This document shows positions 6,983 to 49,705 of a stretch of DNA of 64,000 nucleotides, one piece after another; the stretch's first letter is position 1, and every line of letters starts with the position of its first letter. The stretch spans positions 343,423-407,422 of the forward strand of contig CAWAAF010000010.1 of NCBI GenBank assembly GCA_963779905.1, in the 5' to 3' direction. The notes beneath the pieces were generated by a model that was not told the DNA's origin, did no database searches, and saw only the letters and a program-made list of their open reading frames with translations. The DNA comes from an uncultured Chloroflexia bacterium. GTDB lineage: Bacteria; Chloroflexota; Limnocylindria; Limnocylindrales; CSP1-4. The translations under genes were made by a program, and so were the position numbers.

Positions 6983-10709
<3,727 letters not shown>

Positions 10710-10720
<11 letters not shown>

Positions 10721-18300: not shown

Positions 18301-19487
18301 TCAGCCGCGCGGCGGCGGCTCGCGGCCGGCGCTGAGCAGGAGCGCGGCCAGCAGGGTCGTGCGCGGCACGAGCGAGTCGAGCTCGAGGTACTCGTCTTCG
18401 GAGTGATCGCCGCCACCGATGGGGCCCAGGCCGTCGACGCGTCGGCACGCCCAGGCCGGCCGTGGTGTTGGCGTCCGACGCACCGCCCGTCGCGGCGTCC
18501 TTCAGATCGAAGCCGAGGCGACCGGCCAGCGACACGGCCGCGTCGACCAGGGCAGCCGTACCGGCCGACTTCTCCATCGGCCAGGCCTTGGCGCTCTGCT
18601 CGACCGTGCACGTCACGTCGGCGAACCGTCGTGGTGGCGCAATCCGCCGCACCTCCGCCTCCGCCTCGTCGAGGGCGGCGCGAGTGACTGCCCGCAGATC
18701 GACTTCGAGGCGTGCCTCGGCCGGCACGACATTGGGCCGCGTGCCACCGCTGATCACGCCGACGTTGACCGTCACGCCCGGCCAGCGGCCGTTGAGCGCG
18801 CTCAGCGCGAGTGCCTTGTGGGCCGCCTCGACGATGGCGTTGCGGCCCTTCTCCGGCTCGACGCCGGCATGCGCCGCGCGGCCGGTCATCACCAGCGTCA
18901 GATCGGCAATGCCCTTGCGCGAGCTGACGATGTCGCCGTTGGCGCGGGCCAGTTCCAGGACGAACGCAAAGTCGCTCGACTCGGCATGCGGCGCGATCAC
19001 CGGCTTGCTGGCCGGCGAGCCGATCTCCTCGTCCGGATTGGCGATGAAGACCAGCCGACCAAAAGGCAGGCCGCCAGCGACCGACTGAACGGCGGCGACG
19101 GCATGCAGACCGGCCAGCAGGCCCGCCTTCATGTCGGCCACGCCGGGGCCGTACGCCCGCGTGCCACGCTCCGTGTACGGGCGGCAGGGCGACCGTGCCA
19201 TCGGGGTAGACCGTGTCCATGTGGCCGACCAGCAGCGCGTTGGGACCGCCCCTGCCGGCGAAGGTGCCCACGACCGTGTCGCCCAACTCCGCGTTGGCTT
19301 CCAACTCGACCGTCGCGCCGAGAGCGCGGAAGCGATCGGCGACGATCCGGCCGACCTCGTCGACGCCGGCCTTGCTGTAGCTGCCGCAGTCGATCGCGAC
19401 CAGCCGGCGCAGGTCGGTGAAGAAGTCGGGCTGTGAGCGCTCGACCGCCGCGCGCAGAGCGCGCAGCTCGTCGTCGGTGACCGGCAT
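18301..19487 (-). CDS. M20 family metallopeptidase (ArgE/DapE/ACY1/CPG2-type), 2 frameshifts
   Basis: 'LLVGHMDTVYPDGT', 'GVADMKAGLLAGLHAV', 'FIANPDEEIGSPAS', 'NVGVISGGTRPNVVPAEA', and C-terminal 'GLGPIGGGDHSEDEYLELDSLVPRTTLLAALL'. Start abuts the MarR stop. Confidence 0.75.
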
Positions 19488-19981
19488 CAGTTGGCGGTGG
19501 CGGGCGATTGCCGGCGGGCGCGGCGGAAGCGTTCCTCCAGGCGCTGGGTCAGCGCCAGGTAGTCGGCCTTTTCGTCGTCCGTCAGACAGCCGAACAGCTC
19601 GCCGATGGCGGCGCGGTGAGCGGCCATCAGTTCGACCGGATCCGGTGCTTCGTCGGTCAGTTCGATCAGCGTGGCGCGACGATCCGTCGGATGCGCGACG
19701 CGGCGGACCATCCCCTCCTCTTCCAGGCCGTCGACAAGGGCGGTGATGTTGCGCGGCGTGACGCCGAGCGCATCGGCCAGGTCGCTCATCTTCTGGGCGC
19801 CCTCGCAGTGCAGTGACTCGAGCAGGCGCAGGCGTGACGTGCTCGGGCCGCCGGCCGGCGCCTGCGTGCGCAGCCAGCGTATGTATTCGCCGATCAGCGA
19901 CTCGAAAGACGCTGCCAGTTGGTCGGCCGGCGAGATCTCGATGGCGGGCTGGTTGGGGGCTGCGCTAGGTGTTGTATCCAT
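19487..19981 (-). CDS. MarR family transcriptional regulator
   Basis: 'LLESLHCEGAQKMSDLADALGVTPRNITALVDGLEEEGMVRRVAHPTDRRATLIELT' winged HTH. Intact. Confidence 0.85.
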   Translation of the reverse strand: MDTTPSAAPNQPAIEISPADQLAASFESLIGEYIRWLRTQAPAGGPSTSRLRLLESLHCEGAQKMSDLADALGVTPRNITALVDGLEEEGMVRRVAHPTDRRATLIELTDEAPDPVELMAAHRAAIGELFGCLTDDEKADYLALTQRLEERFRRARRQSPATAN

Positions 19982-20040: not shown

Positions 20041-20990
20041 ATGCGCGCATTCGCAATTGACGAGTTCGGCAAGCCAGGAGAGGTCAAGGAGCTGCCCGCA
20101 GCCGACACCCGGCGAAGGCGAGGTCGTAATTCGCGTCGCAGCCGCCAGCGTCAACCCCATGGACGCGGTGGTTGCCGCGGGTGGTGCTCAGCAATGGGCG
20201 CAGCACCGCTTTCCGCTGGTGCCGGGTCTGGACGCCGCCGGCAGTCGTGACCGCTGTCGGCCCCGGCGTGACCGGCATCAGCGTGGGTGACGAGGTCATG
20301 GCCAGCGCGTCGGACAAGCCCTACTACGGCGGCGGCACTTTCGCCGAGCTCGTGGCTGTACCGGTCCAGGCTGTCGCCAAGAAGCCCGTCAGCATCGACA
20401 TCAAGGCGGCTTCGACGCTGCCGTTGGCCGGCCTGACCGCGCTCGCCGCGATCGAAGCCATCGAGCCCCAGTCGGGCCAGACGATCGCCGTGATCGGTGC
20501 GACCGGCGCAGTCGGCAGCTTCTTCGTCCAGTTCGCCGCCAAGCGTGGCGCCACGGTAGTCGCGCTGGCCCGGCCCGGCGAACTCCGACTATGCCCGCCA
20601 ACTGGGGGCTGCCGAGGTGATCGACCACACCGCCGATCCGGTCGCCCAGATCCACAAAGCCCATCCAGACGGCATCGACGCGATCGCTGACTTCACCGGC
20701 AACCTGACGCTCGTCGCCGCGACATCGGTGCTGCTCAAGCAGGGTGGCCTGATCGCCTCCTCGGCGGCGCTACGGGCTCGATGTTGCGCTGTTCGCGCCG
20801 CGCGGCATCGAAGTTCGGCGGGTCAACGCACTGCCCAACAGCCGGCTGTCGGATCTGGCTCGGCTGATCGATGGCGAAGGCATCCTTCCGCCACACATCC
20901 AGGAGCGCATCGCTCAACGACGCAGCCGCCGCCCTCACCGCCGTCGGCCAGCGCCACAACCGGGGCAAGGTCGTTCTGACCATCGGCTAA
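20041..20990 (+). pseudogene. MDR-superfamily NADPH:quinone oxidoreductase / zinc-binding alcohol dehydrogenase-like, with 5 or more frame changes in about 950 bp
   Basis: Fragments across all three + frames: 'MRAFAIDEFGKPGEVKELP', 'GEGEVVIRVAAASVNPMD', 'GVTGISVGDEVMASASDKPYYGGGTFAELVAVP', 'GQTIAVIGATGAVGSFFVQFAAKRGATVVALA', 'GIDAIADFTGNL', '...RHNRGKVVLTIG*'. Confidence 0.6.
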
Positions 20991-21031
20991 TAGGTGTTGC
21001 CGGCGGCGCGCCCGCCGATATAGTCGGCCTC

Positions 21032-22738
21032 GTGCGCCTGATCGAAGTCCGCCTGCTCGATGGCCCGAACATCTACCGGCTCGAACCGGCCGTGCGCATC
21101 GAGATCGCGCTCGGCCGGCGCCGGTCGTGGTACGGCGAGCGCTCGCCCGGCCGGCTACGCCGTCGTCCGGCTTGGCGCCGCCGTGCCGCGGGCGAGGTCC
21201 CGTCCGCCCATCGCTGCCGTCGCCGACTGGGTGCGGCACCTTCATACGGCCGCGCTCGGCGAGCGCGGGGTACGGCCGCGCGTCCACCGCACGAGCGAGC
21301 CCGGCCACTGGGTCGTCTCGTTTCCGTGGCACGAGCACGGTCGCGCCGAGGCCATCGCCAACTGCGCATTTCGGCTGGCCGAACGCACGTGCCGACCCGC
21401 GCTCGCGAGCGCGCCGCCGTCACAGCTTGATCCGCCAGATCCGCGACGCCAACACGCGCCCGCCGTCGTGGATCACGGACGACGGATCGGCGCGTGCCGG
21501 CCATCTCGATCAGCGGCACCAACGGCAAGAGCACGACCACGCGCATGATCGCCAACATCCTGCGCACGGCGGGCAGGCACGTCGGCGTGACCACCTCCGA
21601 TGGCGTGATCGTCGACGACGAGCTGGTCGAGGAAGGCGACCTGACCGGGCCGCTGGGTGCGCAGAGCGTGCTGCGCAATCCGGACGTCGATGTGGCCGTG
21701 CTTGAGACGGCGCGCGGCGGCATCCTGCTGCGCGGCCTGGGCTACCAGTCCAACGACGCCTCCGTGCTGACCAACGTCAGCCCCGACCACCTCGACCTGC
21801 AGGGCCTGCACACGCTGCCCGAGCTGGCCGAGGTCAAGTCGGTCATCGCCCGCGTAACCAAGCCCGAGGGCGTGGTCGTCCTGAATGCCGACGATGCGCT
21901 GGTGGCGGCCGTCGGCCGGCAGGTCAAGGCGGCGGTCTGCTTCTTCTCGCTGAAGCCGGCCAGCGCGCGCATTCGGCGCCACCTGGCCGCCGGCGGGCGG
22001 GCGATGGTCGTTGAGGATGGCTGGATCGTGGAGGCCGTCGGCTCGCGGCGAAACAGGATCGTCGCCGTTGGCCGACGTGCCGGCGACGATGGGCGGCGCC
22101 GCGCGTCACAACGTGGCCAACGCGCTGGCGGCGGCCGGCGGCGCGATGGCACTCGGCGCGACGCCGCGAGCAGGTGGCCGCCGGCCTGCGCTCTTTCCGG
22201 CCGACATCGGCTCAGATGCCCGGGCGGCTCAACTTCTACCGCCTGGGTAACCGCGTCGTGCTGGTCGACTTCGCCCACAACGAGGCCGGCCTGCGGGTCG
22301 TTCTCGACACGGTCGATGCACTCATCGGCAAGCGCGGAGCACCGGCAGGCGACGCTGAGCACGATCGTGGGCACCGCCGGTGACCGGCCCGACGACGGGC
22401 TGCGTGCCGTTGGCCGGCTGGCCGGCGCGCGCAGCGACCAGGTCGCGATCAAGGAGACGCTGCACTACCTGCGCGGCCGATCGCGCCAGAGCGTCATCGG
22501 CGAGCTGAGCGCCGGCCTGCGCGAGAGCGGCGTTCGGCTGGCCGATGTGCCCATCTACGGCGACGAGCCGTCGTGCGCTGCGCGCGCGAGCTGACCACAG
22601 CCGGCCGGCTGGCGGCGCGGCGGACGGTGCCCACTGGCTGCTGCTGATGTGCCACGAGGACCGGCCCGGCGTGTTGCCGAACTCGAAGCACAGGGCGCAC
22701 GGCCGGTGACGGACGTCGCGGAAATCGTCACGAAATCT
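21032..22738 (+). CDS. cyanophycin-synthetase-like protein made of a CphA-type N-domain fused directly to a Mur-ligase (M) domain, with no ATP-grasp (G) domain; 5 or more frameshifts
   Basis: N-terminus 'MRLIEVRLLDGPNIYRLEPAVRIEIAL' and 'VADWVRHLHTAALGERGVRPRVHRTSEPGHWVVSFPWHEHGRAEAIANCAFRLAE' parallel the CphA N-domain of the neighbouring cphA. After about 30 aa comes 'DDGSARAPAISISGTNGKSTTTRMIANIL...VLETARGGILLRGLGY...VLNADDALVAAVG...DVPATMGGAARHNVANALAAAGGAMALG...GRLNFYRLGNRVVLVDFAHNEAG...IVGTAGDRPDD...'. That is the full Mur-ligase/CphA M-domain. Only about 70 nt separate the N-domain from the GTNGK P-loop. Confidence 0.6.
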
Positions 22739-23280
22739 CACGCGTAAAGGCGGCGCGGCGATAGCGATTGAGCGACGGCCACGCCTAGCGTGCCAGCCGT
22801 GGCGGAACTACGGGTCGGTCTTATCTGGCTGGCAGCCGGCGTCGTCGGCATGGCAAGCCTGCTGTGGTGGCGCTCTACGGACTGGCCGTTGGCCTGATGG
22901 CGATGCTGGCAGCGAGCGCGCCAATGCTGGCGGGGACGAGTCTTGCGGTCGCAGCTGACCGGCATCTGTCAGGGCTGTTTGCGGTTTCGGCTGCCTTTGG
23001 CTGTTCCTGGCCACCGGTCAGTTCATGGCTGGCGTGAACCCTGGGTCCGTTCGTCGGCGGCTACATCGGGCCTATTCGCGGTAGGTGGATCGGTCGTCAT
23101 CCTCGGCGCAGCGCTGGGGGCGTGGCGCATTACCCGTCCCGTCCGCTGCGACGTCCGTTCTGTTCGGACTGAGCGTGGAGCCCGCATCATCTGAGGTTGA
23201 CGTGCCCGCGCGGTGGTGGAGCGGCGCTCCAACGACGGACGATCACGTCCGAAATCGTCATATGAACGCAGGGGTATAAC

Positions 23281-24219
23281 CGTGGCCAAGGCACAGACAA
23301 CAAAGGACAAGGCAAAGGCGGCCGCTGAGGCCGGCGCCGAAGACATGGTGGCCGGTGCCGGCCTGATCGATGAAGCCGGCGGCGCCGCGCGCAAGACGGT
23401 CGGGCTGGCCGCGCAGGGCGCTGCGGACGTCACTCGCGGCGAGGACCAGCTGCGCGCCGCTGACGCCTACGGCACGCTCAGCGACGTCGCTGCCGTGAAG
23501 GGCCTGGTCGATACGGCCGAGGGCGCGGAAGTCCTCGAGGCTGCCGAGGAGGCGGCCGCCGTCAGCACGCTGATGGCCGCCGTCAGCGCGGAGAACATCG
23601 ACCGTGGCATGGTCCTCGCCTCGCTGTCCGGCCAGATCAGGGTGGCCAGCGACGTGGTCGACCTGATGGGCATGCCCGTCCTGGCCGAGTTCCTGGGCGT
23701 CAAGGGCCGGCAGCTGCGCGGGCTCGCCGTCAACGAGATCGGTCGGGCGATGGCCTCGGCTGCCCTGTCCGAGGGCATGGAAGCGATGAGCGACCGGCTG
23801 GCCGCGCTGGGCATGACCGAGGTCGCCGAGGGACTGCAGCGAGCTCGACACATCCGACGCACTGCTCGATGCCCGCGATGACGCCGCCGACGCCGGCATG
23901 CGCAACGCCGCCGCCGGCGTCGCCGAGCTGTCCGCCGCGCAGGCCGAGGCGGAGTGCGACCCGACAGCTGGCCGGTGCGGGCGTGGTGATGGTCGCCCAG
24001 GGCTCCGAAGAGATCGGGGCCGCCGAGGGCCTGGAGGCCGCCGAAGCAGCGAAGCCGAAGCGCTCGACGCGCAAGCCTGCCGCGGCAAGGCAAGTGCCAC
24101 GCCGCAAGGCAAGGCCAGCGCAAGCAAGGCCGCCGGCAGTCGAAGTCGCCAGCAAAGCGCAGACCGGCAAGCGCGCAGAGCGGCAAGGGCAGGGCGGCCA
24201 AGACGTCGTAAGGTCGTAG
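23281..24219 (+). CDS. alanine-rich, predicted all-helical hypothetical protein with Lys/Arg/Pro-rich basic C-terminal tail (2 frameshifts)
   Basis: GTG start 'MAKAQTTKDKAKAAAEAGAEDMVAGAG...'. Repetitive amphipathic Ala/Glu/Val-rich segments. The tail is 'KPKRSTRKPAAARQVPRRKARPAQARPP...KAQTGKRAERQGQGGQ'. No recognisable enzymatic motif. Confidence 0.35.
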
Positions 24220-24234
24220 CCGAGGGCACAGCTG

Positions 24235-25955
24235 ATGGGCGCCGCGCCGCAGCGCCAACCGCCACTCGCCGCTGAGCGGCGTCCTGCCGATCCTCGATTG
24301 GCTGCCGCGCTACGACCGATCCTGGCTGCGCAGCGACATCATCGCCGGCATCGCCGTGACGGCGATGATCGTGCCCAAGAACCTCGGCTACGCCGAAATC
24401 GCCGGCGTGCCCGTCCAGAACGGGCTGTACGCGGCAGCGGCCGGCGCACTGATCTACGCGCTGTTCTGCACGTCGCGTCACATCTCGACCGGGCCGAGCT
24501 CGTCGCTGGCCGCGGTGGCCGGCGGCGCCGTGCTGGTCACCGGCCTTGCCGGCGCGGATGCCGCGCAGCTCGTAGCCGCAATAACGCTCGTCACTGGCGC
24601 GCTGTTCGTGCTGATGGCCGTCCTGCGGCTGGGCTGGATCTCGCGCTTCCTCTCGCGGGCGGTGGTCACCGGCTTCCTGGCCGGGGCGGCAATCGATGTG
24701 GTCATTGGTGAACTACCCAAGCTGACCGGAACGTCCGCCGACGGGAGCAACGCGTTCACCGAGGCGGCCTCTTGGTTCGCCGGACTGAACGAGACGCACG
24801 TGGCGACGCTCGTTGTCGGGCTCGTCGCGCTGGCCGCGATCCTGGCGCTGCGGTTTCGCGGCGCCACGCGTGCCGGGCGCTCTGGTGCTGGTCGTCGGCG
24901 GTCTGGTCGCGTCACGCTTGTTCGATCTCGGCGCAGGCGGCGTCGCGTTGGTCGGCCCGGTGCCGAGCGGCCTGCCGCTGCCTCAGGTGCCCTCGCTCGA
25001 GCTGACGCTGCGCCATCTGCCGGAGGTATCGATCGCGGCTTTCGCGCTGCTGCTGATCGGCTTCTCGCAGACTGCCGGCGACGCGCGGACGTTCGCGACC
25101 CGCCATCGCTACCGCATCGACGTCAACCAGGAGGCGACCGCCCAAGGGATGGCCAACCTCGGCGCCGGCTTCTTCCAGGGCATGCCCGTATCGACCAGCC
25201 TGTCGGCGAGCTCGCTCAACGAGTCGGCCGGCGCGCGGTCGCCGCTGGCGTCGATCACGACCGGCCTGCTGGTCGTTGCCACGCTGATTTTCCTGGCGCC
25301 ACTCTTCGCCGATCTGCCGAAGGCGGTGCTGGCGGCGATCATCATCGACGCCGTCGTCTTCGGCATGATCGACGTGCGTGAGTTGCGCCGGTTGGCGCGC
25401 GTGAAGCCGGCCGACTTCGCCATTGCCATCGTCGCCGTACTGGGCGTGCTGAGCGTCGGTGTCCTGTTCGGCGTAGTCATCGGCATCGGCCTATCGCTGA
25501 TCTGGCTGATCGCGGTGGTGACACGCCCGAGCATGCCGGTCCTGGGCAAACAGGAAGGCACGCAAGTGTTCCGCGACCTCGAATCCCACCCAGAGGACGA
25601 GACCTTTCCCGGCATCGTCGTGCTGCGCATGGACGGCGGCCTGTTCTTCGCCACCGCCGAAGCGCTCGACGAACGAATTCGCGGCCTGGCCGCAGGACGA
25701 CCCGTCGATTCAGACGCTCGTGCTCGACCTCGAAGGAGTCGACCTGATCGATTCCCAAGGCGCGGCCAAGGTGACCGAGATCGAGGAGCTCGCCCGTAGC
25801 CGAGGCGTAAGCCTGCGCCTGGCGCGGGTCAAACCCGGCGTCACGAGGAGTGCTCGAGGCCGAGGGCGTGATCGCGCAGCGTGGGCAGCGACCACGTCCA
25901 CGGCAACATCTTCCGCGCGGTTGACGCAGCGCTCGCGGAACGGGTCGCCGACTAG
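24235..25955 (+). CDS. SulP family anion (sulfate/bicarbonate) transporter with C-terminal STAS domain; 4 or more frameshifts
   Basis: 'LPILDWLPRYDRSWLRSDIIAGIAVTAMIVPKNLGYAEIAGVPVQNGLYAAAAGALIYALF...GPSSSLAAV', later 'FFQGMPVSTSLSASSLNESAGARSPLASI', then STAS 'GIVVLRMDGGLFFATAEAL...LDLEGVDLIDSQGAAKVTEIEEL'. The stop codon shares a CTAG with the cphA stop. Confidence 0.75.
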
Positions 25956-28726
25956 CCCTCTTCGGCCTCCAGCTCGCCGGGGTCGGCGATGGCCACGCCG
26001 CCGCGCGCCTTTCGGGCGCCGATCGCTTCGCGGTAGACACGCTGCCGCGTCGTCGACGCACATAACGACCAGGTCGCCGGGTTTGGCCATGGCGAGCGCC
26101 ATCCGTGCCGCGCCCAGCTCGTCGAGGACCGCCTCGGCCTTCGCGGTGCGCGCGCCTTCGCGCTGGCCCTTCTCTGACGCCGTTCAGCACGTTGGCCGCC
26201 GACTCGCCCGCCGGCCGGCCACGCAGGTTGGCGTCCTCGCGCACGAGGATGGTGTCGAACGCCTGGGCCGCCAGCCGGCCGTACTCGCGCTGGTCTTCGT
26301 CGCGCCGGTCGCCGGGAATACCGATGACGCCGATCGTCCGGCCGTCTGCCATCGCCGGCATATGCCTCAACGAACTCGGCCAGCCGGCGCATGCCGTCGA
26401 CGTTGTGGCAGTAGTCGAGGATGAGCTTGAAGCCGTTGAGCTCGACCTCGTTCAGCCGGCCGGGCGCCTGGAAGAAGGACGTCGTGAAGGTGCGCAGGCC
26501 CTGGCGGATGTCGTGCAGGTGGGCGCCCGCCGCCCAGGCAGCGGCGGCCGCGGCGAGCGCGTTGGCCACGTTCATGCGTGCCCGTCCCCCGAACGTGGCC
26601 GGGATGAGGTGCGTGTAGAGCAGCGGCAGGGTGCGCGTGGCGTGGCGCAGCACCATCAGCTCGCCCTCGTCCGTCTGCTGCAGGACCAGTGCCGCTCCGC
26701 CGCGTCCGCAGTGGCCATCGACGCGGTCGTAGCCCTCCTCGCCGGCCTTGGTCTGCATCGAGAAGTAGACGACGTGGCCGCGGCTCTGGCGGGCCATCTT
26801 GGCGACCAGCGGGTCGTCGGCGTTGAGGACGGCCGTGCCTGCAGCGCGGCACCGCATCGACCAGTACGGACTTGACGGCGGCCAGCTGGCTCGACCGTGT
26901 CGATGCCGTGCAGGCCAAGGTGGTCGCCGGTGACGTTGGTCACGACGGCGATGTCGTTGCGGTCGTAGCCCAGGCCCTCGCGCAGGATGCCGCCGCGGGC
27001 GACCTCGAACACGCACGTGTCGACCGACGGGTTCTGCAGCACCATCCGCGCCGAGCGCGGCCCGCTCATGTCGCCCTTCCGGATCAGCCGGCCGTCGACG
27101 ACGATGCCGTCCGTCGTGGTCATGCCCACGCGCTTACCCATCAGCTTGAGGATGTGACCGATCATCCGGACGGTCGTCGTCTTGCCGTTCGTGCCGGTCA
27201 CCGCCACGATCGGAATGCGCGCGTTGGAGCCCTGTGGAAAGAGCATGTCCAGGACGGGCTTGGCGACGTATTGCGGCTCGCCTTCGGTCGGGTTGGTGTG
27301 CATGCGGAAGCCGGGTGCGGCGTTGACCTCGACGATCGCGCCGCCCTTCTCGCGGACAGGCGTGGCGATGTCGGGCGTGATGAAGTCGATGCCGGCGACG
27401 TCCAGGCCGACGACGCGCGCCGCCGTCTCTGCGATCTCGACGTTGTCCGGGTGCGCCTCGTGCGGTGCGGTCGATGGCCGTGCCGCCGGTCGACATGTTG
27501 CCGGTCAGTGCCAGCTGGACGCGCGTGCCCTTGGGCGGGACGTCGTCCGGCCCGAAGCCCTGCTTGGCGGCCAGCTCGAGGGCGATGTCGTTCAGCGCGA
27601 TGCGCGTCAAGCACCTTCTCGTGGCCGATGCCACGGCGCGGGTCGGCGTTCTCGATGTCGACCAGCTGGCGCAGCGTGTGGTCACCGTCGGCGTTGACGC
27701 CGGCCGGCACGCGCTGGGCGACGGCGGCCATCTTGCCGTCGACGACCAGCACGCGGTAGTCGTTGCCGTGGACGTAGGTCTCGACGACCAGGTCGCCGTT
27801 GCGGCTCTGAGCGCGGGCGAGCGGCACGGCGCGCCGGACGTCGTCGTCTGTGCGCAGGTCGAGGTTGACGCCGCGACCGTGGTTGCCATCGAGCGGCTTG
27901 ACCACGACCGGGAAGCCGAGCGTCTTGGCGGCGGCGACCGCCTCGTCTTCGCTGCGCACGCGTCTGCGAGCGCGGGACGGGCAGGCCGGCCGAGTTCAGC
28001 AGGTTGTTGGTCAGGCTCTTGTCGGACGCGATGTCGACTGCCAGCGCCGGCGTCTGCGAGGTCATCGTCGCCCGGATCCGGCGCTGGTGGATGCCCTGGC
28101 CGAGCTGGACAAGGCTGAAGCGGTCGAGTCGGATGAAGGGAATGTCGCGCGACAGGGCCTCGTCGATGAGGGCCTGCGTCGACGGCCCGAAGGCCTGCTT
28201 TTCGGCCAGCTTGATGAGGTCTTCGAGGGCACCGATGAAGTCGAGGTCGCCGGCTTCCGGCGCCACGAGGTGGTTGACCAGGGCGACCGCCAGCCGGCCG
28301 GCTTCCAGGCCGACCTGCTCCTCGCGGTACTCGTAGATGACGTTGTACTGGCCGGTCTTGCCCGCGCTGCGCGTCTTGCCGATGTGAACCTCGGTGCCGG
28401 CCAGGTCCTGCAGTTCGATGGCGATGTGCTCCGCGACGTGGCCCATCCACGTGCCTTCCTCGAGCCGCGTCACGAAGCCGCCGCGCCGGCCGAGCGAGCA
28501 GGCGTGATCTTCCAGGCCGGGCAGCAGCGCCAGCAGCGCGCGGTTGAAGTCCGGGAATGGTGTTCGACGGGAACTGCTCGAGCACGCCAAGGTCGACGAG
28601 CATGCGGATGACCGGCGTGCGCGACCAGAGGTTTGGCCCGCGCAGGACGCGCGTCTCGAGGATGCGCAGCGTGGGCTGCGGCGTGCCGCTGGCCGTCGCC
28701 TCGGCTGCCGGCGGCGCCTGTGTCAT
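25952..28726 (-). CDS. cphA: cyanophycin synthetase CphA (N-domain + ATP-grasp + Mur-ligase-like domain), at least 6 single-nt frameshifts
   Basis: Segments across three frames. N-terminus: 'MTQAPPAAEATASGTPQPTLRILETRVLRGPNLWSRTPVIRMLVDLGVLEQFPSNTIPGL'. N-domain: 'ALLPGLEDHACSLGRRGGFVTRLEEGTWMGHVAEHIAIELQDLAGTEVHIGKTR...YNVIYEY'. ATP-grasp: 'FPVVVKPLDGNHGRGVNLD...YVHGNDYRVLVVDGKMAAVAQRVPAGVNADGDHTLRQLVDIENADPRRGIGHEKVLD'. M-domain: 'IPIVAVTGTNGKTTTVRMIGHIL...FEVARGGILREGLGY...VLNADDPLVAKMA...NVANALAAAAAAWAAGA...APGRLNEVELNGFKLILDYCHN...TIGVIGIPGDRRDEDQ...'. Topology matches Synechocystis CphA, recalled from memory. Confidence 0.85.
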
Positions 28727-28740
28727 GTGAGTGGCTGGCC

Positions 28741-29575
28741 CTAGCTCGAGGCTTTGGCGATGTCGAGTGCGCGCAGGACCGGAGCGGCCACACGCTCGCG
28801 CCGGTCGAGGTCGAAGCGATAGCCCGACGGCAGCGAGTGCAGGATCACGTTGCTGATCATCAGTGGCTTGTGGGCACCGACTTCCCAGGCGTCGGTGTCG
28901 GATTGCGCGCCATCGATGACGGTGATGCTGCGCTTGCCGATGACTTCCATCACCCGGTCGGGCCCGACCACGCCGGCAGTGTCCTCGTCCACGCCGATGC
29001 CGAGCAGCGACGGGTTCTGGGCGATGATCGCCAGCAGCCGGCCGAGCCGGTTCCGCTGCTCGAAATGCTGGTCGATGATGACGCCGGGCAGGATGCCGAG
29101 CCCGGCCGCCATCTGGAACATGCGCTGCTTGGGCGTCGCGCCCGATGCGCCAAAGGCGACCATGTGCGTGCTCATGGCCGACGCGCCAGCGCTGGTGCCG
29201 GCGACGACGGCGCCCTCTTGCATGGCGCTGGACGACGGCCTGCGCCAGGGCTGTCCCGCCGAGGGTCGACGACAGGCGAAGCTGGTTGCCGCCGGTCATG
29301 AAGATGCCGGTTGCCTGTCGCACGAGTTGCGCGTGTTGCTTGTCGTTGGCCTGTGGCCTGGTCATGGCGTGAATGGGCATGACTTCGCGCGCACCGAGCT
29401 CACCAAAGATGCGGCGGTACATCTCGCCGGCCAGCGGGCCGAGCGAAGAAGCGGTGCTGATGACCGCGATTCGGGCATCCGGACCGCCGGCCAGTGCGAC
29501 GAATCGGTTCAGGATGACCTTCTCGCGCACCTTATCCTCGGCGCCGCCGATGATGATTACGTGGCCTTCGCTCAT
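28741..29575 (-). CDS. cphB: cyanophycinase CphB (peptidase S51), one frameshift near 29240
   Basis: 'MSEGHVIIIGGAEDKVREKVILNRFVALAGGPDARIAVISTAS...IFMTGGNQLRL' then, in a second frame, '...GAVVAGTSAGASAMS...IIDQHFEQRNRLGRLLAII' (GxSAGA active-site Ser). The TAG stop lies 15 nt upstream of the cphA ATG. Confidence 0.8.
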
Positions 29576-29666
29576 TAGCGGCCGAGTATAGGCCGTGATT
29601 GGGGGACGCCGACGTCACGGGAGGACAAGCTGGTCGCCGTAGCCGACGCACCGCTGCTGATTCATC

Positions 29667-30509
29667 TTGCGCGAGCCGCGCCGGTTGGCGGCGATTTTGC
29701 TGTTGTCGGTCTCGGTGGGACTGATCATCGCGTTCAACTACGCCCGGGCCGAAAACGCGGGCGCCGACGCAATCGCCTACTGGCAGGCGGTGCGCACCTG
29801 GCTGGCCGGCGGCGATCCGTATGTGACCGTCATCGACCCGACTCAGGCCAGCGGCCACATCCTGCCCTACGCCTATCCGCCGTGGACCCTTGTCGCTGTT
29901 CCTGCCCTGGGCGCTGTTGCCGTGGGACATCGCCTGGCTGGTCTGGCGCGCTGCCGGCGTCGTGCTCTTCGCGCTGGACGGTCAAGTGGGCCTACGAAAG
30001 GCGCCCGCTGGGCACGGCCGTGTCGATCGCGGTGCTTGGCCCGGCGCTGGTGGCCAACTTCGACTCGGGCAACATCAACATCTTCCTGACGCTGATGGTG
30101 TGGTGGGCGCAGTTCGTCGGCGATCGACTGGGCGGCGATGCTGTGGGCATTCGCAACGGCGCTCAAATGGCTGCCGGGCCTGTTGATCGTCGTTTTGCGA
30201 CCGCGCGCGCGGCTGTGGGGCCTGGCGTTCCTTGGCCTGTTCACGCTCTTCGCGCTGGCGACCTGGCCGCAGACCCTGCGCCAGTTGGAGATCGTCGCCT
30301 TCTACCCGCGCCCGCTCCGACTCGACTATTTCATCCTGGCCTGGGCGGCCGTGCCATGGCTCTATGCGCAGCCCTGGCCGACGTGGTGGCTCCAGCCAAA
30401 GGAGATCGCACGACATTGGCGTGAACGGCCGCCGTGGCGCGCATGGGTGCGCGGCTTCTTCGGTCTTGCGTCGGTGCCGTCAGCAAATCAGCGCTACGAC
30501 CTCAGGTAG
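29667..30509 (+). CDS. polytopic integral membrane protein, DUF2029/glycosyltransferase-87-like (4 or more frameshifts; true 5' end uncertain)
   Basis: Hydrophobic throughout. 'HILPYAYPPW' (Y-x-Y-P-P motif recalled from DUF2029/PimE-like mannosyltransferases), '...FDSGNINIFLTLMVWWAQF...', 'LKWLPGLLIVVL...'. Assignment is tentative. Confidence 0.4.
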
Positions 30510-36448: not shown

Positions 36449-41120
<4,672 letters not shown>

Positions 41121-41287
41121 GGGACGGCGAGTATAGAAGCGAGCGTGAGACCGCACCAAAGTGCAGCAGACCGCACCTAATGACCATTTAGTCCTAGGGC
41201 CAACGGTCAGATGGTTGGATTATCTCGGCGGCCTACCGGTTCGTACTGTCGCCTTCCGTCACCAGCCGGACATCGCGGCAGGAGAAC

Positions 41288-44271
41288 ATGCGCTCGAGTC
41301 GGACCCTCTCATTCGCGCTCGCCGCCCTTGGGGCCATCTCCCTCGTAGTGCCCGTCGTGGCCGCCCAAAGCACGGCCGCCCAGTCGTACATCGTCGTCTT
41401 CAAGGACGCCGCTGCTGACCGAGCCGACTCCAACCCGTCCCATCCGCGAATCGACGCGGACAAGGTGGCGCGACTGGTCGCGGCGATCGCCAGCCGCACC
41501 GGCGTGAACCCGGCCAACACCTTCAGCGCTGTCTTTGGTGGCTTTTCGGCCCGCCTCAATGCCAGGCAGCTGCAGGCGGTCGCAGTCGGATCCGTCGGTG
41601 GCCAATGTGATGGCCGACGTACCGGTGCACCTGCAATTCGATGAAGTCGGCGCGCGCATGACGGAGACCCAGGTCAGGCTGACCTCGCCGAAGGTGCCGG
41701 CCGGCATCAAGCGCGTCGGTGCCACCAACAACGGCATTGCTGACATCGACGGCAACGGCGGCAAGGTCAACGCCGACGTCGCCGTCATCGACACCGGCAT
41801 CCAGCGCGATCACCCCGATCTCAACGTCGTCGGCGGCTACAACTGCACGTCCGCCAACCGCGGCAAGTGGGATGACGGCAACGGCCACGGCACGCACGTC
41901 GCCGGCATCATCGGCGCATACGACAACGGCCGAGGCGTGGTCGGTGTGGCGCCGGGCGTCCGGTTGTGGTCGGTCAAGGTCCTCGACGACACCGGCGACG
42001 GCCTGATGTCGTGGATCGTGTGCGGCATCGACTGGATCACCTCGCAGCGCAGCGGCGACGGCTCGCGGCCTCTGATCGATGTGGCCAACATGAGCCTGCG
42101 CTCGACGCTGCCGCAGGGCGACGACCACAACTGTGGGCGGACCTACCGCGATCTGATGCACTCGGCCCTGTGCCGCTCGGTCGCTGCCGGAACAACGTAT
42201 GTAGTCGCTGCGGGCAACGATCGCGACGACGCGAGCCACTATCGGCCCGCCGCCTACGACGAAGCGATCACGGTCTCCGCCATGACCGACTACGACGGCG
42301 TGGCTGGTGGCAACGGCACGCGCCCGGCCGACTGCCTGGCCGGCTACCCGGACGACACCTTTGCCGGCTTTTCCAACTTCGGCGCCGACGTCGACCTGAC
42401 CGCGCCCGGCGTCTGCGTGCTGTCGACCTGGGCGGGCGGCATGTATGCCTATGCCAGCGGCACTTCGATGGCCGCACCGCACGTCGCCGGCGCGGCCGCG
42501 CTGTACATGGCGCAGTTCCCCGGAGCGGAGCCGGACCAGGTCAAGATGGCCCTCCAACACGTCGGTCGCACGGACTGGAAGCGCTCGACCGACCCCGATG
42601 GGCGGCCCGACCTGCTGCTGTGGGCCACTGGTTTTGACCGGCCGCCCGACTTCAGCGTCGCGGCCACTTCTCCAGCTGGCTACGCCGGCCCCAACGCCCA
42701 ACTCGCCGTGCCCGTGTCGCTGACGCGCCTGCGCGGCTTCTCCTCGACTATCACCGTATCGATGTCGGGCCTGCCCGCCGGCCTGAGCGCTGCGCCGGTC
42801 ACCACCGGCAATGACAAGGCCGTCCTGACCGTGACCGGCTCAGACAAGGTCCGCAACGGTAAGTACACGGCCACGGTCGTCGCCGAGGATGGCGGATTGC
42901 GCCACTCGACCACGGTCACCATTCGCGTCGACGGCATCGCGCCCACCGCGCCGACGTCCGTTACGCCAGGTGCCGGCTTCTGGTATTCGCCCGACGGCCA
43001 GGTAACCCTGCGCTGGAGCGGAAGCACAGACAGCGGCAGCGGCGCCTCGCAGAACGCCTACGTGCGGCGCCGCGTGGCGAGAGCCAGCTCGGGCAGCTGT
43101 GGCGACTTTTCCAACGATGGCGATTGGTCCCTGCTGCCGACCGGTTACTCCGAAGATGCCCTGCTCAGCGGCTACTGCTACCGCTGGCAGATGCGTGCCG
43201 CCGATAAGGCGGGCAACGCATCCGATCCTGTCTCGACCGGCAAGGTGCTGGTCGACACCAGCGACCCGAAGGTGACGATCAGTAAGCCCGCGCCCGGCAG
43301 CACGATTGTCAGGTCAAAGCCCAGCCAGAGCGTCGAGTGGAAGGTCACGGATGCGGGCGGGTCGACGCTTGGCGGAGTCTCTGTTCAGCGTCAGCGCGCG
43401 ACAAGCCATCAACGTGGCAGCTGCGCCGGAGCGACGTGGAAGAACGATGGACTGGCACGCAACCTGAGCTCACCTACGACCGAGAAGGGGCTGGTCGGCG
43501 GGTCGTGCTACCGCTGGATCATCACGGCCCACGACAAGGCCACCAACTACAGCAAGACGACGAGCGGCTCGGTGCTGATCTCGTCGTCGGCCACCTCGTC
43601 GACCGAAACGAGCGCCGGTGGCGCGAGCCCGTCGATGGGTAGCGTCACCCTCACCCCGAGCGCCGGTTCGACGCTGCCGTCGACCGAAATGGTCTGGCTC
43701 GATGCCCGTTGGACCGCCAGCAACGCCGCCGGTTACGAGTTGCGCCTCAGTTCCAGCGGCGGCGCGAGCTGGAGCACCTTCACGCACGCCGAACGGCAGC
43801 ACGCCGTTCATGGCGCTGCGCCTGCCGGCCGGGCGGGTTTACGAAGTCCAGGTCCGCGCGCGGAACAGCGCCGGCGCCTGGAGCGATTGGTCGTCCGCGA
43901 CGACTGTTTCGCTCAAGCTGGCGCAGGCAGAAGGTTCCGGCTTCGAGAAGGTCGGCGCCTGGAAGTCGGCAATGTCTCGGGCGCATCGGGCGGAGCGGTC
44001 GCCTACTCGACGAGCAGTGGCGCAATCCTGCGTTACTCCTTCACCGGCCGGTCCGTGGCGCTCGTGTCGACGCTTGGGTCCGGGCCGGGGAATGGCCGAC
44101 GTCTACGTCGATGGCCTGCGCGCGACAACGATCAACCTCTCGTCTTCGACGCTCACCACGCGCCAGGTCGTCTTCACCCGCAACTGGTCAAGCAGCGGCG
44201 CGCACGTCATTTCGCTGCAGCTGCGTTCGTCGGCGCGCGTCGACGTCGATGCGGTGGTCGTCCTGAACTAG
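41288..44271 (+). CDS. subtilisin-like S8 serine peptidase with signal peptide, I9 propeptide, catalytic domain and long C-terminal Ig/FN3-like repeat region; about 4 frameshifts
   Basis: Signal 'MRSSRTLSFALAALGAISLVVPVVAAQS'. I9 'YIVVFKD...FGGFSARLNARQLQA'. Catalytic triad motifs 'VAVIDTGI' (Asp), 'HGTHVAGII' (His), 'GTSMAAPHVAGAAALY' (Ser). About 500-aa C-terminal beta-rich repeats ending 'ADVYVDGLRATTINLSSSTLTTRQVVFTRNWSSSGAHVISL...VVVLN*'. Confidence 0.85.
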
Positions 44272-45066
44272 CCGGCGGCCTCCGCCAGGAAGTCGCCCAC
44301 GATCTGGTTGAACTCCGCCGGTCGCTCGAGATTGACCATGTGCGCAACGCCCTCGAAGACATGCTGCCGGGCGCCCGGCACTTCGGCGGCGATGCGTTCG
44401 CTCGCCGAGATGACACCGGCCGTGTCCAGCGTGCCCCACATGACGAGCGTCGGCACCTGGATCTCGCCTAGCCGGTCGGCGGCGGCAGGGATCAGCGGCT
44501 GGGCCTGCGAGGCAGGCTGCTCGGCGAGGTAGTTATCGAGGTTCCACTCGACCATGTGCCGTCGCACATCCGGATCGACGCGGGTGGTCGGCTGGCCTAC
44601 GCCATCGGTCCAGATCTGGGTCTCGCGCTCGACCAGCTGCTCCCAGTGCTTGCCCGTCTCGAGGCGGTCGATCTCTTCCCAGTCGATGCCGTCATCGGGC
44701 ATCTGGTGGCCGCCGAGTCCTGATGCAACGGCAACCAGGGCATTCACTCGATCCGGCTGCTCGAGGGTGAAGTCGGTCGCGATCGAACCCCCACGCGATA
44801 GGCCGACGACGGAGGCCTTCTCGACGTCCCAGGTGATCGAGCAGGCGGCGGACATCGTCGCGGTTGGAGTACGGCCGATCTTCGCAGGTGGTCTTGCCAA
44901 AGCCGCGCTGGTCGTAACGGATGACCGTGAATCGATCCCGCCAGGCCGCCACCTGTTCGTCCCACATGCGCAGGTGGGCCACGCCGGCGTGCACCAGCAG
45001 CACCGGCGGCCCGTCGCCGTCGACCTCGTAGTAGAGCCGGGCGCAGGGGACATCCAGGTAGCTCAA
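44268..45066 (-). CDS. alpha/beta-fold hydrolase, one frameshift near 44800
   Basis: 'PPVLLVHAGVAHLRMWDEQ...VIRYDQRGFGKT' then, in a second frame, 'VVGLSRGGSIATDFTLEQPDRVNALV' (GxSxG nucleophile elbow) and C-terminal 'VFEGVAHMVNLERPAEF' (His). Confidence 0.7.
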
Positions 45067-46210
45067 GCGCGCTCCTCCAGCAACCGCAGCGTAGCCGTCA
45101 AAGCGTCAGCCGCTGTCTTCTTATTTGCCTCAACCAGCTCCGACGGGTCGGCCCGGACGAAGTCGGGTGGGTCCAGAAAGAGCTGCGGCGGCTCCGAGCC
45201 GTCATATCGCTCCGCTTCGGCCGACCACTTCGCGCGCCAGCCCGCGTCGGTCTCTGCCGGCAGGTCGCGGTGCGCCTGCGCCAACCAGACCAGCGACCAC
45301 GAGCGCGGCACCACACGGTAAGCGTCATACCCTCCCCCGCCGGTGGCCAGCCAGCGGCCACCCGTCCATTGATGCGAGATCTCGTCGAGCAGGACCGTCG
45401 CGAAGCGGTAAGCATTGGTCGTCAGTCGCAGGTGGGCCAGCGGGTCGTAGGCGTGGCTGTCGCAGCCGTGCTGGCTGACCAGGAAGGTCGGCTCGAACGC
45501 TTCAGCCAGGGCGGGCAGCAGCTCGGCAACGATGGGTTGCCACGATGCGTCCCCGCTATAGGCATGCAGCGGCACATTGACCGCGCTGCCGTGGGCGTTG
45601 GTGCGCCACGCTCGTCGACGAAGCCCGATCCGGGGAACAGGGTGAGTCCACTTTCGTGGATGGAGACTGTCAGCACTTGGGCATCGCCCCAGAAAAGCGC
45701 CTGTGTGCCGTCGCCGTGGTGCACGTCGAGGTCGACGTAAAGGACCCGATGGCCGGCATCGCGCGCGCGAGCCACGCCGAGCGCAACGTCGTTGTAGATG
45801 CAGAAGCCGCTGGCTCGCGCCGCGGAAGCGTGGTGCAGCCCGCCGCCCGGATGGAATGCGTGCTCGACCTCGCCCGCCAGGATGCGATCGACGGCGTCGA
45901 TCGAGCCGCCGGCAACGGTCGCCGAGGCTTCGTGCATGCCTTCGAAGGGCGGGCAATCGCCCGGCCCGATGCCCATCGTCGGCGGCCGCCATGGATCGTG
46001 GGCAAAAGTCTTGACGACGTCGATGTACTCGGCCGTGTGCAGGCGGCGCAGCTCCGCGTCAGTGGCCTCGCGCGGCTCAATGAAGTTCTCCGCGCCCACC
46101 GAGCGCATCAGCTCGATCGAGGGACCAAAGCGGCGCGGCGTCAGCGGATGCTCGGGACCAAAGTCGTAGTCGAGGCTGTGCGGGCCGTAAACGACCAGCG
46201 GCTCAGTCAT
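45063..46210 (-). CDS. histone-deacetylase-family protein (acetoin-utilisation AcuC / acetylpolyamine amidohydrolase-like), one frameshift near 45610
   Basis: 'HAFHPGGGLHHASAARASGFCIYNDVALGV', 'VLYVDLDVHHGDGTQALFWGDAQVLTVSIH', then '...YSGDASWQ...' in a second frame. Confidence 0.8.
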
Positions 46211-46800
46211 CAGTCGCCGTCGTTGTCCGCCGTCTCCCAGCCACCGGAGCTGAGTGCCGCCTGCCAGGCTGCCGCCGCCTCCTCACCGCGATCCAGCGCG
46301 GCCGCGTAGCGCCCAACCAGCTCGGCGAAGGCGCCCTCGTCCTCTTCGGGCATCTCGAGAACGGTGGCGGTTGACGGCAAGTCGCTCGTCGCGTCGCGGC
46401 CGGGCGTAGTCACGACGACGAGTGACGCACCCTGGAAGGACGCGGCGTCCCGCGCCGCGCCGACCGCCGAGGGCTCGAGCGGTTCGGCAACCACCAGCAC
46501 CCGGAATTCGGTCAAATAGGCGAGGCCGAGCTCGACATCCTGACCGTCGAGCCGCGGCTGCGGTCCCGCCATCGTGCTGGGCCTGGGCGTCGGCGCCGAT
46601 GGATCCCGGAGCAGCGCGGCGTGGCCGATGCCGGCCTTGCCCAAAGCCACTGTCACGCGATCGCCGTCGGCATCGTCGCCGATGGCACCAACCACGTCAG
46701 CCGGGGCGCCCGCAGCCCGGGCGGCCAGCGCGATCAGCGCCGCCGGCCGGTCGAGCTGGTCATTTGCGTCGAGCCCGGGCCGCCCGACGACGACGATCAC
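46210..46800 (-). CDS. hypothetical protein (Ala/Asp-rich; no confident family assignment)
   Basis: Intact 196-aa ORF ('MIVVVGRPGLDANDQLDRPAALIALAARAAGAPADVVGAIGDDADGDRVTVALGKAGIGHAALL...') in operon-like position between the M16 peptidase pair and the HDAC gene. Coding periodicity is plausible but no motif was recognised. Confidence 0.35.
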   Translation of the reverse strand: MIVVVGRPGLDANDQLDRPAALIALAARAAGAPADVVGAIGDDADGDRVTVALGKAGIGHAALLRDPSAPTPRPSTMAGPQPRLDGQDVELGLAYLTEFRVLVVAEPLEPSAVGAARDAASFQGASLVVVTTPGRDATSDLPSTATVLEMPEEDEGAFAELVGRYAAALDRGEEAAAAWQAALSSGGWETADNDGD

Positions 46801-48315
46801 GACTCGGCGTCGGCCGCTACGACGGTCATCGGCGCGAGGTTCAACTCGCGCAGCGCGCCTTCGACCTTGGACGCGTCACCCACTACAACGACCGACATGT
46901 CCGACGGCCGGATGAGGCGGCGCGCGGCGTCGAGCATGTCCGCTGCCGAGACGGCGGCGACGGCCGGCCGGTAGCGATCGAGCTCGTCGTCCGGCAACTC
47001 GTGGATGACCAGGCCGGCCAGGGCGGCAGCGACCTGCGCCGGCACTTCGAAGCGCAGCGGGAACACGCCGACGAGGTAGTCGCGTGCCGATTCGAGCTCC
47101 CTCGGCTCCACCTCGGCCTCGCGCATGCCGATGACGATCTGCCAGATGTCGTTCAGCGCCGGTGCCGTCACATCCGTCTCGACGGCGGTGCGAATGACAA
47201 ACGGACCGGCGGAGCGGCGCATGTCGAACGCCGACCAGATCGAGTAGGCGTAGCCCTTCTCCTCGCGGATGATCCGATTCAGGCGCGAGTCGAAAACGCC
47301 ACCGAGGATCGCGTTGAGCACGGCCACCGTGTAGAAGTCGGGTGTCTTGCGTGGAATGCCGACGTGGCCGACACGGATCTCCGACTGCGCCGAGCCGGGC
47401 CGGTCGACCAGCACCAGCCGGCTGCCGGCCGAGTTTGAGCCGGAATGCGTGGGCGCGCGGCCGTTGGCGCCGCCCTGGCCGCGCCAGCCGCCGAGTTGCT
47501 CCTGCACGATGGCTGGAAGGTCCAGGCCCGACAGATCTCCGGCGACCATCAGCGTCGCCCGGGCGGGGTCGCTGGCCTGCCCATGGCGCTGCGCGACGGC
47601 GTCACGATCGAGGCGCTTGACCGACTCCTCGGAACCGCCGAGCGGCCGTCGATAGGGCGACTGCTCGTCGAAGATGACCTCAGGAAACACACGCTCGGCG
47701 CGCCGGCGCGGGTTGGCCTTGGCCTGCAGCAGGTCGTTCAGCCGCTCATCGCGCAGCCGCTCGATCTCGGACTCCGGGAATGCCGGCTCGCAGGATCATC
47801 TCGGCCAGCAGTGAGACCGCGTCGGCGAAGCGCGAGCGCGGCACCTCGAGCGTCGCGGTCAGCGCTTCCCACGAAGCGTCGGCGTGGAGTTCGGCACCCA
47901 GCCGCTCGGAGGCCTCGATAAAGGCCATGGCGTCGCGCTTGGTCGTGCCTTCGGTCAGCGCCCGGCCGGTCATCGTCGTTACACCGGACAGCTCTTCGGG
48001 CTCGGCCGCGCCGCCGCCGGCCATGACCAGGTTCGCCGCCAACAACGCGCGCCCCGGCATGTGCGCCGACAACACGGTCAGCCCGTTGTCCAGGCGGAAC
48101 CGTTCGAACTTGGGAAAGTGGTAGTCGCGCGGCTCGCCGGCCGATGGACGTGTGTCGAGATGTGAAAGGTCGGGCCCTTGGAATACCGTCGCCGAATCTG
48201 TTTCGTCAGGCAGCTCGGCGACGCCGGTGTCGACGGCGAGCGTATCGGTCATGAAGCCGGCTTCCGGAGATTCCTTCTCGTCGTCGGGTCGGGCGTCTTC
48301 GTGCTGGTCGGTCAT
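46797..48315 (-). CDS. M16 family peptidase, second (probably non-catalytic) subunit of a pitrilysin-like pair; one frameshift near 47740
   Basis: 'FRLDNGLTVLSAHMPGRALLAANLVMAGGGAAEPEELSGVTTMTGRALTEGT' (no HxxEH). C-terminal half 'FYTVAVLNAILGGVFDSRLNRIIREEKGYAYSIWSAFD...' in another frame. Confidence 0.7.
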
Positions 48316-49637: not shown

Positions 49638-49705
49638 GGAAGGTGTGGGCTGGGGCACGTGGCGGATTGTGCCACCCGCAGCGCTTGACATGCAGCAAGT
49701 CAGCG

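Follow-up and report, generated by a model that had tools for sequence, protein, structure and literature searches.

Cyanophycin synthetase 1 (CphA1) is encoded in 1614 RefSeq genomes, and in 81% of the 658 genomes having both genes cphA1 is clustered with the gene of a cyanophycinase (Sharon & Schmeing 2023, PMC10206079). The labour of CphA1 is divided among three domains referred to as G, M and N (PMC9427784), and a Cx19HxxEH motif of the N domain makes the enzyme primer-independent (Sharon et al., PMC9262961, which is also the source of the residue roles mentioned below). In the current analysis we have considered a locus with genes of these two families, cphA for the synthesis and cphB for the breakdown of cyanophycin (multi-L-arginyl-poly-L-aspartate), a polymer that stores nitrogen, in the window, by which is meant the whole stretch of 64,000 nucleotides of contig CAWAAF010000010.1 that was analysed. 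The region is likely to be a genuine and conventional cyanophycin operon of a bacterium of Candidatus Limnocylindria, a class of Chloroflexota, in which the reading frames have been broken by sequence errors. A first-pass annotation of this DNA had regarded cphA genes outside cyanobacteria as scattered, a view that the number of RefSeq genomes given above does not bear out. The genes central to the analysis are the following.

28741 to 29575, minus strand: cphB, cyanophycinase (peptidase S51); ATG at 29575, TAG at 28743-28741; 277 residues after frame correction
28727 to 28740, minus strand: spacer of 14 nucleotides between cphB and cphA, GGCCAGCCACTCAC, read directly from the sequence
25952 to 28726, minus strand: cphA, cyanophycin synthetase 1 (N, G and M domains); ATG at 28726, TAG at 25954-25952; about 922 residues after correction
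21032 to 22747, plus strand: a second CphA-like gene, referred to here as MurL; GTG start at 21032; about 571 residues; at least 9 frameshifts

Six-frame translation of the region from 20.5 to 30 kb reveals cyanophycinase and cyanophycin synthetase peptides on the minus strand that are distributed over all three frames. Neither cphA nor cphB is an uninterrupted open reading frame (ORF) in the DNA as given. The frames have been corrected by homologue-guided, frameshift-aware protein-to-DNA alignment together with a Viterbi frame caller that takes into account stop codons and the GC content of third codon positions (GC3), and the domain, motif and family results described here hold for the frame-corrected proteins. 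The two genes are arranged head-to-tail on the minus strand and encode the expected domains, in agreement with the compact cphB-cphA operon proposed earlier. The stop codon of cphB is situated just upstream of the ATG of cphA as had been stated, the spacer being 14 and not 15 nucleotides long; it is 3 nucleotides in the related locus L001 and 8 nucleotides in the related locus L002. Both genes had been described as complete, which holds for their coordinates, their operon arrangement and their full length after correction, but not for intact ORFs, as 9 frameshifts are present in cphA and 1 in cphB.

The corrected CphB passes the TIGR02069 model with 269.7 bits (cutoff 126.6) and matches the Peptidase_S51 family of Pfam. 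Among the solved cyanophycinases it is similar to 7UQV (E-value 1.9e-64), 3EN0 (2.2e-60) and 7UQW, the E-values of the three being 5e-60 or better, and 252 of its 277 residues are identical to CphB of L002 in a frameshift-aware alignment that contains no in-frame stop. The segments GTSAGAS, IIDQHF and GVDEDTA align with those of 7UQV or are the same in both proteins, the first of them containing the GxSAGA motif noted earlier in the form GTSAGA. These segments would hold the Ser-His-Glu triad described for 3EN0. Going by homology, the product of cphB would be a serine cyanophycinase of the S51 family that cuts cyanophycin into β-Asp-Arg dipeptides.

The stitched CphA, when used as a query, retrieves thousands of cyanophycin synthetases, the best of which are two intact metagenomic proteins of 930 residues each, P0001 (94% identity) and P0002 (92%). 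Frameshift-aware alignment with P0001 has 881 of 922 residues identical and zero in-frame stops. The protein passes TIGR02068 with 1142 bits (cutoff 850), the alignment extending from position 1 to 855 of the 862 in the model, and its Pfam domains occur in the order Cyanophycin_syn, ATP-grasp families, Mur_ligase_M and Mur_ligase_C. This is the succession of N, ATP-grasp and Mur ligase domains that had been read from the sequence, and the profile searches that had been proposed as a check, made here with Pfam, TIGR02068 and TIGR02069, find both corrected proteins to be full-length matches with the expected domain order. CphA is collinear with residues 1-857 of CphA1 from Synechocystis sp. UTEX2470 (SuCphA1, 7LG5; E-value 3e-245) and retains its catalytic positions, namely H267 of the G site (DGNHGRG), the P-loop of the M domain (GTNGKTTT) and D585/H586 (GDHLG), positions defined by the mutants of PMC9262961 and PMC9427784. 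In the N domain the Cx19HxxEH metallopeptidase motif is kept (HACSLG...19 residues...HVAEH) with H57, C59, R70, H79, E82 and H83, and primer-independent synthesis is therefore predicted. On the basis of homology, the G (ATP-grasp) domain would add Asp and extend the poly-Asp backbone, the M (Mur-ligase-like) domain would attach Arg to the β-carboxylate of each Asp side chain, and the N domain would bind the polymer and cleave it into primers.

Eight of the nine frameshifts of cphA are unambiguous +1 insertions, located near 28552, 27957, 27608, 27460, 26889, 26840, 26172 and 26036, and the ninth lies near 26347 within a variable linker. The gene cphB has a single +1 insertion near 29218-29221. 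When P0001 is compared with the window by tblastn, cphA extends over 28726..25955 with the frame order -1, -2, -3, -1, -2, -3, -1 and so on. The window is full of overlapping spurious ORFs, and one ORF of 813 residues (27134..29575) is a chimera in which the true codons of cphB run into out-of-frame sequence of cphA. The DNA alignment of the insertions has been made with L001, a JGI contig of the organisation cphB'-cphA-SulP with 92% amino acid identity. The frame changes are seen in it as extra single bases in the window, 10 of 12 of which do not extend the neighbouring base, and no common motif is present at the insertion sites in this alignment. An error of the homopolymer type known from long reads has been rejected as the source, since only 2 of the 12 insertions extend the neighbouring base.

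The phenomenon is not restricted to the cyanophycin genes. About 40 to 60 single-base +1 insertions break nearly every gene on both strands throughout the window. When the ORFs of 82 related loci are compared with the window by tblastn, 73 frame junctions become apparent, of which 64 are +1. The GC3- and stop-aware caller, applied to the whole window, gives 58 same-strand frame changes of +1 against 16 of +2/-1, some of the latter being ordinary gene boundaries. Housekeeping genes are broken as well, with 3 switches in metH, 2 in the fragment of carB and 2-3 in lhr.

It is highly likely that these frameshifts are errors of sequencing or assembly and not signs of gene decay. The spectrum of almost exclusively +1 insertions outside homopolymers, the zero nonsense codons, the lack of rate acceleration and the broken housekeeping genes together point to an artefact. 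As for the rate, the corrected CphA is 85.3, 85.0, 83.5 and 78.7% identical to the outgroups P0003, P0004, P0005 and P0008, and the intact CphA of P0001 is 84.1, 84.6, 82.3 and 77.1% identical to the same proteins in that order. The CphA of the window is thus no further from the outgroups than the intact P0001 and P0002, which argues against real decay. The cphA genes in 21 related loci of metagenome-assembled genomes (MAGs) mostly have 0 frameshifts and at most 2. Genes with 1-2 frameshifts are found in the loci L027, L032, L034, L069, L074, L077 and L033, most of which are long-contig 'MFD' assemblies. Indel errors hence occur in the public assemblies of this clade, far less densely than here. 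The organism would probably carry intact and functional cphB and cphA genes.

A number of observations weigh against attributing the frameshifts to errors. The frame changes are unevenly distributed, with about 2.7 per kb between 20 and 30.5 kb compared to about 0.65 per kb in lhr, and 18-19 per 8 kb at 16-32 kb compared to 3-9 per 8 kb elsewhere; a uniform error process alone does not explain this density. At its 3' end MurL has three shifts of -1 or +2, one of them in a (GC)n run, and exact look-ups of two ORFs of the window in public assemblies have not returned an identical, error-free copy. Alternatively, the frameshifts could be real and the cyanophycin locus with its neighbours could consist of recently inactivated pseudogenes in a decaying genome. 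In favour of this, the density is highest over the 16-32 kb that include the locus, cphA has 9 frameshifts and MurL no fewer than 9 against 3 in the 4.6-kb lhr, and an error-free copy of this exact sequence is not found. We nevertheless consider such an inactivation unlikely. Natural indels are expected to follow a deletion- and repeat-biased spectrum, unlike the insertions of the window. The zero nonsense codons, amino acid divergence that is not in excess, the carB and metH genes that are likewise broken, and the intact orthologues in nearly all relatives speak against it as well.

With the frameshifts taken as errors, there is approximately one spurious base for every 0.3-1.5 kb of the window. 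Annotation based on ORFs, the 813-residue chimera included, is therefore unreliable in it, and other findings of the first-pass annotation from this window are to be read with this rate in mind.

The genes surrounding those listed above, which bear on the identity of the host, are the following.

29640 to 30509 (approximate), plus strand: GT87 (DUF2029) glycosyltransferase, Pfam GT87, divergent from cphB
24235 to 25955 (about), plus strand: anion transporter of the SulP family that ends in a STAS domain; frame switched at least 4 times; start uncertain; TAG at 25953-25955
23270 to 24210 (approximate), plus strand: Ala/Glu-rich ORF with a Lys/Arg/Ala-rich basic tail, between MurL and SulP; frame-switched; without a Pfam family
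20070 to 21020 (approximate), plus strand: zinc-type alcohol dehydrogenase (ADH) or quinone oxidoreductase-like gene, Pfam ADH_zinc_N and ADH_N; frame-switched
19487 to 19981, minus strand: MarR-family regulator, Pfam MarR; intact ORF of 164 residues
18300 to 19487, minus strand: M20 metallopeptidase, carboxypeptidase-G2-like, Pfam Peptidase_M20 and M20_dimer; 2-3 +1 frameshifts (near 19185 and 18430)

Judged by its sequence relationships, the host is a soil-type member of Chloroflexota (Limnocylindria) and not an actinobacterium. The named close hits of CphA and MurL are all from MAGs of Candidatus Limnocylindrales or Limnocylindria or from MAGs labelled 'Chloroflexota', the nearest proteins being up to 94% identical for CphA and up to 85% for MurL. 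In blastn comparisons the part of the window between roughly 6 and 58 kb matches the flanks of cphA in Limnocylindria MAGs with a nucleotide identity of 70-75%, a single locus typically accounting for 25-42 kb. The gene order is shared over about 30-45 kb, protein-level synteny agrees, and the matching genes include metH, M20, MarR, GT87, lhr and an S8 peptidase. The closest relative contig is that of P0001 (JGI 3300041967), where the order is GT87, cphB, cphA, an unknown protein of 319 residues, a Mur-ligase-like protein of 569 residues, ADH, MarR (164 residues) and M20. The position of GT87 is unchanged in the contig of P0001 and in L002, and the gene is encoded upstream in 28 of the 82 loci.

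The first-pass annotation had instead favoured an actinobacterium-like host in which the cyanophycin genes form a dedicated island for nitrogen and carbon storage, such as could have been acquired horizontally. Its estimate of a GC content of about 70% agrees with the measured 0.68-0.71 and with the 0.65-0.72 found throughout the window, and high GC, the occurrence of GT87/DUF2029 and Lhr in many Actinomycetota and the presence of related cphBA clusters in some Actinomycetota MAGs would fit such a host. These clusters are only 62-66% identical in CphA, which is to be compared with the Chloroflexota proteins mentioned above, and Lhr and DUF2029, which had been taken as actinobacterial markers, occupy the same syntenic positions in Chloroflexota MAGs. 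The GC content is flat across the locus without any compositional break, Limnocylindria MAGs have the locus and its flanks in synteny over the tens of kilobases described, and SulP, which had been counted with the island, lies beside cphA only in the window and L001. No mobility genes (integrase, transposase) are found by Pfam among the focal genes, the rest of the window not having been scanned exhaustively. An actinobacterial host with an acquired island is accordingly considered very improbable.

Another explanation of the frame changes is that they are decoded by programmed +1 ribosomal frameshifting or transcript editing: the consistent +1 direction speaks for it, but the sites have no common motif, slippery site or stop-codon context, the shifts affect all gene families irrespective of the strand, the orthologues of the relatives encode the same proteins unshifted, and we know of no bacterial system that decodes such frame changes, so that its probability is next to nil. 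Errors in the sequence of a Limnocylindria genome thus continue to be the preferred reading in what follows.

The second CphA-like gene that had been reported at the locus is present, with the GTG start at 21032. Its frame path is 2>3>1>2>3>1>2, followed by three more shifts. Pfam assigns Mur_ligase_M and, weakly, Mur_ligase_C to the stitched MurL and no ATP-grasp family, and the score against TIGR02068 (394 bits) is below the cutoff of 850 and covers model positions 476-833 only. The best match in the PDB is the M domain of CphA1 (E-value 1.1e-76), which surpasses every Mur ligase match by about 60 orders of magnitude, the best chain of the Mur ligase family other than CphA having an E-value of 1.7e-14. 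Assignment of MurL to the MurC-F, FolC or MurT ligases has been rejected, the matches to the NCBIfam models being far below their cutoffs (for murE, for example, 98.7 against 257.3).

In profile-profile comparison using hhalign the first 140 residues of MurL are collinear with residues 20-175 of the CphA N domain (probability 72-78%, E-value about 1e-5), and the HxxEH segment is deleted in this divergent N domain. An AlphaFold2 (AF2) model of the intact orthologue P0122, which is 85% identical to MurL, has a mean predicted local distance difference test score (pLDDT) of 90.4. The top matches of this model in Foldseek are the CphA1 structures 7LGJ and 7LGQ (TMq 0.77), in which the N and M domains are aligned and the G domain is skipped. 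On the evidence of these alignments and the predicted model, MurL is not a second synthetase and is best described as a 'CphA1 minus G' in which Mcore and Mlid follow directly on a divergent N domain. Its identification as CphA2 has been rejected, as the G domain is absent and the M domain intact. The motifs GTNGKS and DH do not vary among 44 orthologues, and the M domain is apparently that of a competent Arg ligase. The family is large, with 6870 proteins of E-value 0.001 or lower among 8000 candidates scored, and its members carry no annotation beyond 'Mur ligase family protein' or an automatic 'cyanophycin synthetase'.

The association of MurL with the operon has been analysed in related loci. 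The counts anchored on cphA refer to GTDB loci with enough sequence. In all 71 of these cphB is encoded upstream of cphA on the same strand, and within 400 nucleotides in 65 of them. MurL is convergent within 5 kb downstream of cphA in 58 of 65 loci, and M20 accompanies MurL in 34 of 52. A set of 18 metagenome loci anchored on MurL gives a similar picture, with M20 flanking MurL in divergent orientation in 14 of the 18 and cphA convergent downstream of MurL in 9 of the 10 with enough downstream sequence. The clusters are distributed over Limnocylindria, Thermomicrobiales, Actinomycetota and one Dormibacterota MAG. MurL and M20 are thus conserved partners of cphBA in this lineage and SulP is not. 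The M20 protein of the window scores 309 bits against NF004788, below the cutoff of 349, and is similar to PDB entry 1CG2 with an E-value of 3.3e-48. The MarR stop codon and the M20 start codon share 1 nucleotide (19485-19489, minus strand), an arrangement suggestive of translational coupling, and the same 1-nucleotide overlap is observed in the P0001 contig.

Considering the architecture of the proteins and the linkage of their genes, we tentatively infer a conserved module of four genes (cphB, cphA, MurL and M20) in which MurL and M20 act as a side-chain ligase and hydrolase, a 'write/erase' pair on cyanophycin; this proposal is plausible though somewhat short of probable. MurL would ligate Arg, or else a different amino acid, to free β-carboxylates of Asp in cyanophycin or poly-Asp independently of backbone extension, and M20 would be the missing hydrolase of β-Asp-Arg, or of side-chain Arg, in these lineages. 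If true, M20 would represent a new fold family for the hydrolysis of β-Asp-Arg or side-chain Arg. Our search of the literature has not found any description of a CphA without the G domain ('CphA3') or of a module of MurL and M20. The surveys of cyanophycin clusters that we have read discuss IaaA, IadA and CphZ and do not mention a Mur-ligase-like or M20 partner.

The anion transporter that had been described as convergent on cphA is confirmed by its domains. The stitched protein matches both families that define SulP proteins, Sulfate_transp (E-value 2.3e-85) and STAS (3.1e-14) of Pfam, and the convergent stops of cphA on the minus strand and SulP on the plus strand overlap within the palindrome CTAG at 25952-25955. 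This overlap leaves no room for terminators between the two genes. Of the 82 loci compared, only the close relative L001 has SulP next to cphA as in the window, and membership of SulP in the cyanophycin system has been rejected as the gene is not conserved beside cphA. The Ala/Glu-rich ORF matches no Pfam family, and tblastn does not find it in any of the 82 cphA loci. In the P0001 contig its slot is occupied by the 319-residue protein, which also has no Pfam match. Directly downstream of MurL, at 22800-23260, a possible small hydrophobic ORF with membrane-like character is split over two plus-strand frames; the frame caller has scored this stretch as non-coding.

On the other side of the operon, the divergent intergenic region between cphB and GT87 is 86 nucleotides long (29576-29661). 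A TATACT hexamer ends 10 nucleotides upstream of the ATG of cphB and hints at a very short leader. A scan for consensus promoters has not identified a site of the sigma-70 type at the locus, including this intergenic region. The GT87 gene has three +1 frameshifts, near 29890, 29972 and 30134, with the frame path 3>1>2>3. No tRNA or Rfam elements are found in the whole 64 kb. The regions at 6995-10712, 36547-41160, 41275-43549, 44271-49666 and 62516-64000 provide further context; after stitching, MetH, Lhr and the C-terminal half of CarB have been confirmed among their products by Pfam. MetH is a cobalamin-dependent methionine synthase, the five domains of which become visible once the 3 frame switches are stitched. 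A subtilase, two M16 peptidases with a deacetylase-like gene and an alpha/beta hydrolase have been recognised by eye in the same regions.

In comparison with known systems the operon itself is ordinary, since the clustering of cphA1 with cphB is already the documented norm and is widespread outside cyanobacteria. CphA of the window has the same collinear N-G-M architecture as CphA1 of Synechocystis sp. UTEX2470 (7LG5, 7LGJ) and of Trichodesmium (TeCphA1, 7WAC). It differs from the cyanobacterial CphA1 in its Chloroflexota host, about 19 extra residues at the N-terminus, another C-terminal tail and the 9 frameshifts. CphB belongs to the same S51 fold family as the cyanophycinases of Synechocystis (3EN0) and of 7UQV and 7UQW, with the TIGR02069 assignment and the GTSAGA motif in common, its gene being immediately upstream of cphA. 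It resembles the intracellular CphB and not the extracellular CphE in that no signal peptide is seen, the N-terminus only having been read, and the one +1 frameshift distinguishes the gene from known cphB. A search of the literature has not returned any paper linking Limnocylindria to cyanophycin. Cyanophycin metabolism now appears to be near-universal and syntenic in this abundant class of soil and freshwater Chloroflexota.

The partners of the operon are less familiar. The third partners in the RefSeq survey are IaaA and IadA; here they are a CphA paralogue without the G domain and an M20 protein, which are not mentioned in that survey (PMC10206079). The closest parallel to MurL is CphA2, the polymerase of β-Asp-Arg dipeptides (7TA5, 8FXH), both being reduced paralogues of CphA1 that coexist with a full CphA1. 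CphA2 keeps the N and G domains and is without the P-loop of the M domain and Mlid (PMC9427784). MurL is the mirror image of it, keeping a divergent N domain with Mcore and Mlid, including the P-loop and the DH motif, and being without the G domain. The M20 gene takes the position of the 'third gene' of a cyanophycin cluster, and its product, which may be compared with the β-Asp-Arg dipeptidases CphZ, IadA and IaaA, is of a carboxypeptidase-type metallohydrolase family; CphZ is known to bind the carboxylate of Arg in a carboxypeptidase-like manner (PMC9974463). The fold families are different, the protein of the window being M20/CPG2-like whereas CphZ is of the AstE/carboxypeptidase-A type, IadA is an amidohydrolase and IaaA an Ntn hydrolase. 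The paralogue without the G domain and the M20 protein are concrete, testable candidates for new chemistry around cyanophycin.

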